This document shows positions 5,539 through 6,554 of a stretch of 64,000 nucleotides of DNA, in pieces. The notes below the pieces were generated by a model. It was not told the origin of the DNA. It worked only from the letters and a program-made list of their open reading frames with translations, and searched no databases. Where the stretch lies: the sequence record NC_054909.1, one strand, 5' to 3'. Source of the stretch: Escherichia phage EC121. Position numbers and translations under genes: made by a program. Position 1 is the stretch's first letter. Every line of letters starts with the position of its first letter.

Positions 5539-5614
5539 TGGTCGAGGCAGTAGGGATCGAACCTACGACCCAGGACTTAGAAGGTCCTTGCTCTTCCTTC
5601 TGAGCTATGCCCCG
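5539..5614 (-). tRNA. tRNA-Arg (anticodon TCT)
   Basis: Hand-folded cloverleaf, anticodon arm AGGAC-CTTCTAA-GTCCT, T-arm GTAGG-TTCGATC-CCTAC, CCA encoded. Confidence 0.8.
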
Positions 5615-5618
5615 TAAT

Positions 5619-5694
5619 TGGGGTGACCGATGGGAGTCGAACCCATGACTACGAGAATCACAATCTCGAGTTCTACCAACTGAACTACGGCCAC
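5619..5694 (-). tRNA. tRNA-His (anticodon GTG)
   Basis: GTGGCCGTAGTTCAGTTGGTAGAAC-T-CGAGA-TTGTGAT-TCTCG...CCCATCGGTCAC-C-CCA; anticodon loop and C73 as in bacterial tRNA-His; no G at -1. Confidence 0.7.
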
Positions 5695-5808
5695 ATTAAT
5701 ACCTACTCCAACAATCATGATGTCTTCACACGAAATTAAGAGAAGAGTGATCAGTTCAACCCCTATAATCGCGTCAAGTAGATATTAATGTGACAGTTGT
5801 CACAAATT

Positions 5809-5883
5809 TGGCGGACGTGATAGGATTCGAACCTATAACCAATCGCTTAACAGGCGATCGCTCTGCCATTGAGCTACACATCC
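5809..5883 (-). tRNA. tRNA-Asn (anticodon GTT)
   Basis: GGATGTGTAGCTCAATGGCAGAGC-G-ATCGC-CTGTTAA-GCGAT...; acceptor and T stems pair, CCA encoded. Confidence 0.75.
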
Positions 5884-5887
5884 AAAT

Positions 5888-5974
5888 TGGTGGGGAGTGA
5901 TGGAGTCGAACCACCCGAGTCGCAATGACAATGAATTTACAGTCCACACCGCTACCTCTACGGGATAACTCCCC
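5888..5974 (-). tRNA. tRNA-Tyr (anticodon GTA), class II with long variable arm
   Basis: Anticodon arm GTGGA-CTGTAAA-TTCAT (two G-U pairs), variable-arm hairpin GTC-ATTGC-GAC, T-arm GGTGG-TTCGACT-CCATC, acceptor GGGGAGT/ACTCCCC, CCA encoded. Confidence 0.6.
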
Positions 5975-5981
5975 CTTAATT

Positions 5982-6056
5982 TGGTGGCCCTGGGTGGAAT
6001 TGAACCACCATCTGGCGATTATGAGTCGCTTGCTTGAACCTTCCAGCTACAGGGCC
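5982..6056 (-). tRNA. tRNA with CAT anticodon (T4 tRNA-Ile type)
   Basis: GGCCCTG acceptor, anticodon arm AGCGA-CTCATAA-TCGCC, T-arm GGTGG-TTCAATT-CCACC, CCA encoded. Confidence 0.75.
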
Positions 6057-6057
6057 T

Positions 6058-6133
6058 TGGTGCTGATTGACGGAATCGAACCGCCGACATCCTCATTACA
6101 AGTGAGGTGCTCTACCTACTGAGCTAAATCAGC
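6058..6133 (-). tRNA. tRNA-Thr (anticodon TGT)
   Basis: GCTGATTTAGCTCAGTAGGTAGAGC-A-CCTCA-CTTGTAA-TGAGG...TCAATCAGCACCA. Confidence 0.8.
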
Positions 6134-6138
6134 AAAAC

Positions 6139-6228
6139 TGGCGGAGGCGATAGGATTTGAACCTATGAGTCGCCGGAGCGACTGCCGGTTTTCAAGACCG
6201 GTGCATTAAACCACTCTGCCACGCCTCC
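6139..6228 (-). tRNA. tRNA-Ser (anticodon TGA), class II
   Basis: Anticodon arm CCGGT-CTTGAAA-ACCGG, long variable arm, acceptor GGAGGCG/CGCCTCC. Confidence 0.75.
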
Positions 6229-6230
6229 AG

Positions 6231-6304
6231 TCTCCATACAAGGATTTGAACCTACGACATTCTGCTCCCAAAGCAGACGCTCTACCAAACTGAGCTACAC
6301 GGAG
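6231..6304 (-). tRNA. tRNA-Pro (anticodon TGG), CCA not encoded
   Basis: Acceptor CTCCGTG (C1:G72), anticodon arm TCTGC-TTTGGGA-GCAGA; T-stem pairs only 3 bp as I read it; separated from tRNA-Ser by 2 nt. Confidence 0.65.
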
Positions 6305-6314
6305 TAAATTAAAT

Positions 6315-6388
6315 TGGAGCGGATAATGAGAATCGAACTCACATCATCAGATTGGAAGTCTGAGGTAATGCCATTATACGATATCCGC
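6315..6388 (-). tRNA. tRNA-Gly (anticodon TCC)
   Basis: Acceptor GCGGATA/TATCCGC, anticodon arm TCAGA-CTTCCAA-TCTGA, CCA encoded. Confidence 0.8.
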
Positions 6389-6393
6389 AAATT

Positions 6394-6480
6394 TGGTGCG
6401 AGAAGTGGGACTCGAACCCACAAGGAAATAATTCCGCAGCATTTTAAGTGCTGTGCCTTTACCAATTTGACCATTCTCGC
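6394..6480 (-). tRNA. tRNA-Leu (anticodon TAA), class II
   Basis: Acceptor GCGAGAA/TTCTCGC, anticodon arm CAGCA-CTTAAAA-TGCTG, variable-arm hairpin GGAA/TTCC, CCA encoded. Confidence 0.75.
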
Positions 6481-6481
6481 G

Positions 6482-6554
6482 CTGGGAATAAAGGACTCGA
6501 ACCTTTGCATCTAGCAGTCAAAGTGCTATGCCTTACCAACTTGGCTAATTCCCA
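6482..6554 (-). tRNA. tRNA-Gln (anticodon TTG), CCA not encoded
   Basis: Acceptor TGGGAAT/ATTCCCA, anticodon arm TAGCA-CTTTGAC-TGCTA, T-arm AAAGG-TTCGAGT-CCTTT. Confidence 0.75.

Follow-up and report, generated by a model that had tools for sequence, protein, structure and literature searches.

Eleven tRNA genes of Escherichia phage EC121 include a tRNA-His that lacks an encoded G-1 and follows a structured leader

Escherichia phage EC121 carries a dense run of tRNA genes at positions 5539-6554 of the 64,000 nucleotides (nt) analysed here (record NC_054909.1; this whole stretch is called the window). The locus raises the question whether this is the tRNA cluster of phage T4 enlarged by three genes, and what a tRNA-His among them might do. 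A first, sequence-only reading had described the T4 eight plus His, Asn and Tyr, inserted as one block between Arg and Ile. Our analysis indicates that the locus is very probably the Tequatrovirus tRNA operon in a segB-free form resembling that of T2 and the RB phages, and in its most complete version, with eleven tRNAs, an open reading frame (ORF), rnaD, rnaC and a terminator. The cluster as a whole is already known, as it is annotated in at least 185-261 deposited phage genomes. What is new here is the T at position −1 of tRNA-His across T4-like genera, a covarying leader in front of that gene, a chimeric tRNA-Pro, and a tRNA-Tyr that scores below threshold but is expressed in T6.

ARAGORN, run over the whole window, called eleven tRNA genes in total, all on the minus strand and within 5539-6554; coordinates, order and anticodons were those proposed from the sequence, and His, Asn and Tyr were called along with the other eight. 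As a cross-check we used the tRNA model of Rfam 15 (gathering score 29 bits), which placed 10 of the 11 genes above the gathering score with 54-75 bits, tRNA-Tyr being the exception. Along the minus strand the array begins with tRNA-Gln(UUG) at 6481-6554 (anticodon ttg, 66 bits), in which G73 and a single C are followed by the start of tRNA-Leu(UAA) at 6394-6480 (taa, 59.3 bits). It continues with tRNA-Gly(UCC) at 6315-6388 (tcc, 63.3 bits), tRNA-Pro(UGG) at 6230-6304 (tgg, 54.1 bits), the class II tRNA-Ser(UGA) at 6139-6228 (tga, 62.6 bits), tRNA-Thr(UGU) at 6058-6133 (tgt, 75.4 bits) and a tRNA with a CAT anticodon at 5982-6056 (59.9 bits). The class II tRNA-Tyr(GUA) at 5888-5974 (gta) and tRNA-Asn(GUU) at 5809-5883 (gtt, 74.1 bits) come next, followed by a 114-nt spacer at 5695-5808, tRNA-His(GUG) at 5619-5694 (gtg, 65.1 bits) and tRNA-Arg(UCU) at 5539-5614 (tct, 63.9 bits). 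Gaps between the tandem genes in the Gln-Leu-Gly-Pro-Ser-Thr-Ile...Arg order are 1-10 nt. Inspection of the cloverleaves agreed with the earlier observation that an encoded CCA is absent from Pro and Gln only; Leu, Gly, Ser, Thr, His and Arg, for example, carry it.

The CAT tRNA was labelled Met by ARAGORN. Its closest E. coli gene is annotated as tRNA-Ile and has an identical anticodon arm (AGCGACTCATAATCGCCAG), and its acceptor ends, GGCCCT.../...AGGGCCACCA, are those of E. coli tRNA-Ile(CAT). Because it shares both features, we assign this tRNA to the Ile2 type and not to tRNA-Met. It also has the acceptor pairs C4-G69 and C5-G68, which we take to be determinants for TilS. Judging from T4 tRNA-Ile and E. 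coli ileX, this tRNA would be expected to carry lysidine at position 34 and to be charged with isoleucine.

To place the locus, we compared it with related phages. Over a 1.5-kb region containing it, Escherichia phage vB_EcoM_ESCO58 shows 98.5% identity and has these 11 tRNAs annotated. Megablast with this region gave matches in 1076 phage records; 261 of them cover at least 80% of it, and most are Tequatrovirus genomes whose annotation likewise lists the 11 tRNAs. A total of 185 records carry the segment Asn-leader-His-Arg, and in 168 its identity is at least 99%. On both sides blastn shows synteny with T4 at 95-97% identity, over e.5-e.8 on one flank and over trna.2-4, the internal proteins, 57B, 57A and gene 1 on the other. 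The ORFs and annotations of T4, ESCO58, T2 and T6 agree on a locus that extends on a single strand from the e.x genes to trna.2-4/ipI/57B/57A/gene 1.

In T4 itself (NC_000866) the order is Gln-Leu-Gly-Pro-Ser-Thr-Ile-segB-Arg-rnaD-rnaC, and its annotation bears out the statement that it carries only eight tRNAs (Arg, Gln, Gly, Ile, Leu, Pro, Ser and Thr). The two phages share the locus, the eight anticodons, rnaC and rnaD; Gln and Thr have the same sequence in both, Leu and Gly each differ by a single nt, and Ser is the T4 gene except that its CCA is encoded. However, T4 has segB where the window holds Tyr-Asn-leader-His, rnaD follows Arg directly in T4 but is separated from it by an ORF in the window, and four T4 tRNAs (Gln, Pro, Ser and Ile) lack an encoded CCA compared with two here. 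Moreover, Ile and Arg are different alleles: the stretch from inside Ile to the start of rnaD (approximately 5170-6037) gave no blastn alignment with T4, and gene by gene most of Ile and the entire Arg gene could not be aligned with their T4 counterparts, the two Arg sequences being unrelated outside the conserved loops. The description "T4 eight plus His, Asn and Tyr" thus holds for the set of anticodons and for the position between Ile and Arg, but the locus is not a T4 cluster with an insertion.

The closer match is with the T2 type. In T2 (NC_054931) the order is Gln-Leu-Gly-Pro-Ser-[ORF]-Ile2(CAT)-Tyr-Asn-Arg-ORF. T2/T2L, RB1 and RB3 share with the window the absence of segB, the genome position, the Ile2(CAT) gene, identical Tyr and Asn genes, an Arg gene that differs by 1 nt and the same 116-amino-acid (aa) ORF after Arg. 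T2 differs in that an ORF replaces tRNA-Thr and in that Arg follows Asn directly without leader and His, giving 9 tRNAs compared to 11 in the window. Relative to T2, leader and tRNA-His form an exact insertion of 114 + 76 nt (190 nt) between the CCA of Asn and the short spacer in front of Arg. The three additional tRNAs are therefore not one block, as had been supposed, since Tyr-Asn forms a T2-type segment and leader plus His a separate unit of 190 nt that T2 lacks.

The absence of T2L-type genes from T4 can be related to the homing endonuclease gene segB. T2L, RB1 and RB3 have no segB, and versions of the cluster bearing Tyr and Asn have been described with them (Brok-Volchanskaya et al. 2008, PMC2330249). 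Crosses of T4 with T2L lead to homing of segB and to the exclusion of about 1250 bp with Met/Tyr/Asn/Arg; the preferred (major) SegB site lies within T2L tRNA-Asn and has the consensus GGTTCRANTCC...CCAR (PMC2330249). The window shares this position with T2/T2L: a predicted 27-bp SegB site at 5807-5833, GGTTCGAATCCTATCACGTCCGCCAAA, fits GGTTCRANTCC at its 5′ end and CCAR at its 3′ end and consists of the 3′ part of tRNA-Asn plus the two following bases (GGTTCGAATCC...CCAAA). We infer from these data and the published crosses (PMC2330249) that T4 is a replaced and reduced allele made by SegB homing and that the window represents the segB-free allele. T4 would lack Tyr, Asn and His because segB occupies their place. 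As SegB prefers to cut inside this type of tRNA-Asn, the T4 allele would be expected to displace the window allele in mixed infections, and the segment would be lost in crosses with segB-carrying relatives. The cluster itself is a standard annotated feature of T-even phages and provides another case of SegB-linked allele diversity; it also identifies the phage as a T2/RB-type Tequatrovirus.

T6, with the order Gln-Leu-Gly-Thr-Ile2-Tyr-segB-Arg, shares the Ile2 gene upstream of Tyr and a tRNA-Tyr only 1 nt apart. It differs in that Tyr is immediately followed by segB and that Pro, Ser, Asn and His are missing. Amplification driven by SegB would be impossible in cis in the window, as it has no segB. 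In Escherichia phage vB_EcoM_11B_SA_NWU (locus L003) a gene for a 206-aa endonuclease, segB-like by position, lies between His and Arg (1819-2569); its tRNA-His stops at C74 and is followed by TTTTTT, the insertion having removed the rest of the encoded CCA.

The tRNA-His gene differs from its bacterial counterparts at the 5′ end. Nearly all tRNA-His carry G-1 as an identity mark, and the only known cases of its loss are those in which the histidyl-tRNA synthetase (HisRS) co-evolved. Position −1 of the phage gene is T (window 5695) and −2 is A, so no G-1 is encoded in the genome, and the acceptor stem has 7 bp with G1-C72, a G4.U69 wobble, C73 and an encoded CCA. Of the features of a bacterial-type tRNA-His, the GUG anticodon, a cloverleaf that passes the model and C73 are present, but the G-1:C73 pair that gives an 8-bp acceptor stem is not. 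E. coli hisR can be aligned with the phage gene position by position starting at +1, and its −1 base is G. Cloverleaf and hisR alignment thus agree with the earlier observation of C73 without G-1, which turned out to be general: all 21 T4-like loci, which comprise 14 different sequences and come from Tequatrovirus, Jiaodavirus, Gelderlandvirus, Winklervirus, Kanagawavirus and phages of Enterobacter and Aeromonas, have T at −1. Viral contigs outside this group that carry five or more tRNAs have G at −1 in 36 cases, T in 10 and C in 1 (n = 47). An alternative register that would supply G-1 was considered and rejected, as a shifted 5′ end breaks the D-arm spacing and the hisR alignment holds from +1. 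The anticodon and T stems of the phage tRNA-His show compensatory changes across genera, and since the stems are kept in this way the molecule is under selection as a tRNA. The G4.U69 wobble is kept in almost all T4-like tRNA-His genes; Serratia phage X20 and E. coli hisR have G4-C69.

What would become of such a transcript in the host? The bacterial histidine identity set consists of G-1 and C73, with the −1 base mainly positioning the 5′ phosphate (reviewed in PMC9976931). U-2 and G-1 steer E. coli RNase P to the unusual −2/−1 site, and loss of G-1 is quoted to result in more than 100-fold poorer charging (PMC5499578). Given the U-1 and A-2 of this gene, cleavage by E. coli RNase P would most probably occur at the canonical −1/+1 site, and the expected product would be a mature tRNA-His without G-1, which the host HisRS would charge poorly under the known identity rules. 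Full-text literature searches returned no mention of a phage tRNA-His without G-1. Precedents for tRNA-His genes with no G encoded at −1 come from alpha-proteobacteria (Caulobacter group) and from some eukaryotes and organelles (cited in PMC9976931, PMC3064791 and PMC5499578). In those lineages, however, the discriminator and the cognate HisRS co-evolved, whereas the window keeps C73 and its gamma-proteobacterial hosts have G-1. The alpha-proteobacterial discriminator we take to be A73 and not C73. A HisRS or Thg1-like enzyme encoded by the phage is not known, though no genome-wide search for one was made. The ORFs flanking the tRNAs were considered as tRNA-maturation enzymes (for example Thg1-like); a scan of these flanking ORFs alone returned only PHROGs of unknown function and no significant Pfam domain. 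The 5′ end and the charging of the phage tRNA-His are relevant to how RNase P selects its site, to the identity rules of HisRS and to the reasons why phages carry tRNAs.

C73 tRNA-His genes with T at −1 were also seen in an unrelated set of multi-tRNA viral loci from IMG/VR (L099, L118, L123, L047, L105, L109, L125 and L127). Only loci with directly readable sequence are counted here. In all of these except L047, the last bases of the leader are UGGU or AGGU and are complementary to a CCA end, either that of the tRNA-His itself or that of the upstream tRNA. Loss of the encoded G-1 may be recurrent in phages.

The spacer between Asn and His, at 5695-5808, had been described as 114 bp with a hairpin, and both the length and the hairpin (GTGACAACTGTCAC at 5790-5803, a hairpin specific to the window) were found as described. 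There is more structure to it than this hairpin. The predicted fold is Y-shaped (z = −3.7), with an AU-rich closing stem of 13-14 bp in which 5776-5789 pairs with 5695/5696-5709, so that its 3′ strand ends at position −1 of tRNA-His; inside lie a variable hairpin A (about 5728-5774) and a small hairpin B (5711-5723, loop UCAUGAU). We analysed 12 distinct leaders (204 pair cells, 500 shuffles and slid-partner controls), in which 98% of the cells are standard pairs compared to 34-49% with slid partners. Six pairs changed on both sides, and none of the 500 shuffles reached the observed covariation score. A covariance model scored 101 bits on the tRNA (minus) strand versus 20 bits on the plus strand, a strand specificity due to G.U pairs, and found a single copy in the 64-kb window. 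The model did not match the T4, T2 and T6 loci or unrelated viral tRNA-His loci of the G-1 type. The spacer is thus a conserved, covarying RNA structure attached to tRNA-His, and this leader appears not to have been described previously.

Leader and tRNA-His also occur, at 80-92% identity, in T4-like phages of Klebsiella, Enterobacter, Salmonella and Serratia, where they follow tRNA-Gln in an otherwise different array. The leader accompanies His in every T4-like locus compared, whichever tRNA lies upstream (Asn, Gln or Thr). Hence leader-His is best described as a module in its own right that brings its folded leader along and that other T4-like genera share. In Enterobacter phage Q7622 (L141) the leader is reduced to a minimal 31 nt, stem and loop only, while Aeromonas phages have an unrelated 7-bp hairpin that is likewise flush with +1. 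The Gln-His spacer of two T4-like phages of Enterobacter and Salmonella (L015, 481-694; L016, 1578-1790) is about 214 nt long and contains an extra conserved segment of about 110 nt before the His leader.

Several other identities for the spacer were examined and set aside. It does not seem to be a degenerate tRNA or a known RNA family: an Rfam 15 scan of 5695-5808 gave no match at E ≤ 1, and the "tRNA-Gln" label under the Klebsiella BLAST matches refers to the neighbouring gene. A promoter is not supported, as no sigma-70 consensus site lies inside the spacer on the minus strand, the total number of matches does not exceed that in shuffled sequences, and TTGAC-like motifs are not conserved across genera. 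Nor is a small ORF favoured: the 37-aa ORF at 5605-5718 runs through tRNA-His, and types L006 and L011 do not conserve its start codon. The idea of a repeated or mobile cassette is at odds with the covariance model, which finds a single copy in the 64 kb and no match in the T4, T2 and T6 loci; a regular-expression search for terminal inverted repeats also gave no match, but this pattern was too strict even for the window's own copy. Homology to rnaC or rnaD was rejected for lack of sequence similarity. A likeness to the T4 species 1 and 2 RNAs, which rnaC and rnaD encode, exists at another level, since these are small, structured, co-transcribed non-tRNA segments delimited by tRNA processing sites, and release of the His leader would follow the same route. 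However, rnaC has a tRNA-like T-arm and the leader has not, and the leader is tied to tRNA-His with its stem abutting +1.

How the array may work can be outlined from T4 biology. The genes would be transcribed as one precursor and cut by host enzymes, with RNase P making the 5′ ends, exonucleases trimming the 3′ ends and the CCA-adding enzyme completing Gln and Pro. Host enzymes would modify the tRNAs, for example TilS the CAT tRNA, which would then read AUA. Eight of the tRNAs would read A-ending codons that are common in this phage of 36% GC and rare in E. coli, and Tyr and Asn would add capacity for two heavily used amino acids. Codon use was counted in 60 ORFs of the window. The A-ending codons amount to 585 TTA, 222 AGA, 294 ATA, 468 GGA, 315 CCA, 399 TCA, 379 ACA and 462 CAA, while Asn, Tyr and His account for 5.9%, 4.25% and 1.34% of codons, respectively. 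These counts fit a supply role for the eight classical tRNAs, Asn and Tyr, but not for His.

For tRNA-Tyr a role in counter-defence may be added. Septu cleaves tRNA-Tyr, and overexpression or amplification of the T6 tRNA-Tyr rescues the phage; the T6 tRNA was detected by Northern blot and is less stable than the host tRNA-Tyr (Chihara et al. 2026, PMC13096335). The gene in the window differs from the T6 orthologue by 1 nt, in the T-stem, is 100% identical in T2 and is at least 95% identical in 406 records. It may therefore buffer against host nucleases that destroy tRNA-Tyr (Septu, retron-Eco7 PtuAB), as does the nearly identical T6 gene (PMC13096335; PMC11555353), and some protection against defences of this kind is predicted. 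Low covariance scores had been named beforehand as a sign of pseudogenes; this applies to Tyr only, the other 10 genes passing, and for Tyr it is outweighed because the T6 orthologue is expressed and active (PMC13096335).

The tRNA-Pro gene appears to combine two alleles. Its T-stem, GTAGG/CCTTG, has three Watson-Crick pairs, as had been counted before, with G49.G65 and U50.U64 mismatched. Two Pro alleles circulate, a T4 type with the T-stem CAAGG/CCTTG that is also present in L003 and L007, and an ESCO58 type with GTAGG/CCTGC and a fully paired acceptor stem. The window gene is of the ESCO58 type in its 5′ two-thirds, up to the T-loop, and of the T4 type in the 3′ third thereafter. The junction is the shared T-loop GGTTCAAATCC within the T-arm (6239-6255), and this motif stands at the 5′ end of the SegB recognition consensus (PMC2330249). 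The weak T-stem would thus be due to the joining of two alleles in the T-loop. Among 50,697 records none was more than 96.5% identical over the gene, and the chimera may have arisen by genuine recombination, perhaps as a scar of repair, or may be an artefact of assembly. Compared with the window tRNA-Gln (6481-6554), the Gln allele of L003 and L007 carries eight anticodon-stem substitutions, apparently as compensatory pairs. Taken together, the Gln, Pro, Ile and Arg alleles show that the cluster is a mosaic of interchangeable tRNA alleles.

Several points weigh against an operon that simply supplements the tRNAs of the host. What is said here on transcription, processing, modification and charging derives from T4 biology and published work. 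The supply argument fails for His with its low codon share, and the Pro allele of this genome carries the two T-stem mismatches. tRNA-Tyr falls below the Rfam tRNA threshold (<29 bits) and appears only as a sub-threshold tRNA-Sec match of 29.9 bits; its D-stem is irregular with a C.C mismatch, and in several GenBank records the orthologue is annotated as tRNA-OTHER or tRNA-Pseudo-GTA. The literature examined documents no defence system that targets tRNA-Asn or tRNA-His. Finally, inspection of the sequences shows that the three additional tRNAs add no new decoding ability and no obvious nuclease-resistant variant. Both follow from their anticodon loops, which we take to be the same as those of the host species for Tyr and Asn, the His loop having been read in E. 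coli hisR.

Of the alternatives, the one that survives best holds that leader and tRNA-His are a specialised unit and not an ordinary supplementary tRNA. We consider this possible, albeit on the doubtful side. It could take three forms. In the first (a), the hairpin abutting +1 redirects 5′ processing, and the tRNA matures with U-1 and its 5′ phosphate in place and is charged. In the second (b), the lack of G-1 is deliberate, and the tRNA acts uncharged or poorly charged as a decoy, a regulator or another non-translational RNA. In the third (c), the excised leader of about 95-114 nt is a stable functional RNA like T4 species 1 and 2. A specialised unit would be in line with the invariant T at −1 in the 21 loci from several genera, with a leader that stays with His whether Asn, Gln or Thr lies upstream, and with a covarying closing stem that ends at −1 (98% paired, 0/500 shuffles). 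The minimal 31-nt hairpin in L141 and the unrelated Aeromonas hairpin at the same place also favour it, as do the single copy and strand specificity of the leader and its absence from T4, T2, T6 and the G-1 viral loci. His is, in addition, the least used of these amino acids, and HisRS recognition of −1 is largely a matter of positioning the 5′ phosphate (PMC9976931).

On the other hand, U at −1 is a generic optimum for canonical RNase P cleavage, and the U-2 and G-1 determinants are missing (PMC5499578). As U-1 is optimal and the −2/−1 determinants are lacking, the simplest assumption is that RNase P cuts at +1 as usual. The tRNA body evolves by normal compensation, as is typical of a translating tRNA, and the interior of the leader is poorly conserved, which speaks against a ribozyme or a sequence-specific small RNA. 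The leader also has no Rfam match. In the same tentative vein, T4-like phages of enterobacteria and Aeromonas may carry a dedicated tRNA-His module that lacks the encoded G-1 on which the HisRS of their hosts depends, keeps C73 and is fused to a covarying leader ending at the processing site. If so, and if the mature tRNA without G-1 or with U-1 is nevertheless used, this would be a case from bacterial hosts of a G-1-independent or alternatively matured tRNA-His; if it is uncharged, the phages would conserve a tRNA with a role outside translation, accompanied by a small RNA. The peculiarity of tRNA-His is genuine and general to T4-like phages, a modest curiosity and not a new kind of system.

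Another explanation would be that Tyr, Asn and His are kept as a set to replenish tRNAs with G/Q34-U35 against anticodon nucleases of the colicin E5 type, which we regard as improbable. The three are indeed among the four UQU-loop tRNAs cut by colicin E5 (Tyr, His, Asn and Asp; PMC1635277), and the chance of drawing three of those four from the 12 remaining amino acids is about 0.02. Related Klebsiella and Enterobacter phages also carry Asp, and replenishment is the mode shown for T6 tRNA-Tyr against Septu (PMC13096335). However, the literature examined contains no phage-defence system of colicin E5-like specificity, Tyr-Asn and His arrived as separate modules, and the related phages carry many other tRNAs as well. 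The anticodon loops are as in the host, so that the phage copies would also be cut, and a tRNA-His without G-1 would be a poor replacement for the host tRNA-His.

It is very improbable that some or all of the three are functionless, decaying relics or pseudogenes carried along by recombination, as the low score, mismatched D-stem and database labels of Tyr, the lack of the main HisRS identity element in His, the success of T4, T2 and T6 without some or all of these genes in a region called non-essential (PMC2330249) and the damaged Pro gene might suggest, given the conservation of Tyr in T2 and 406 records, the Northern blot detection of its T6 orthologue and rescue from Septu (PMC13096335), the Rfam tRNA scores of Asn (74 bits) and His (65 bits) and the compensatory substitutions that keep the His cloverleaf across genera.

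Returning to the reading of the locus as the complete segB-free operon, its distal part contains two stable-RNA genes and two ORFs, again all on the minus strand. Between tRNA-Arg and rnaD lies the 116-aa ORF (5170-5520; function unknown, phrog_3355), a homologue of T2_136 that is absent from T4, and on the other side of the RNA pair a 157-aa ORF (4311-4784; function unknown, phrog_2280) is likewise absent from T4; neither of these two ORFs flanking rnaD/rnaC has a Pfam domain. No Rfam family exists for rnaC or rnaD, and both were located by blastn against T4. The rnaD homologue (T4 stable RNA, species 2) at 5058-5173 has conserved ends and a diverged middle, and the rnaC homologue (species 1) at 4913-5051 is 97.8% identical and retains the tRNA-like T-arm. 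A GC-rich, terminator-like hairpin followed by a T run, recognised by pattern match only, lies at 4833-4862 on the same strand and likely marks the end of the RNA-gene transcription unit.

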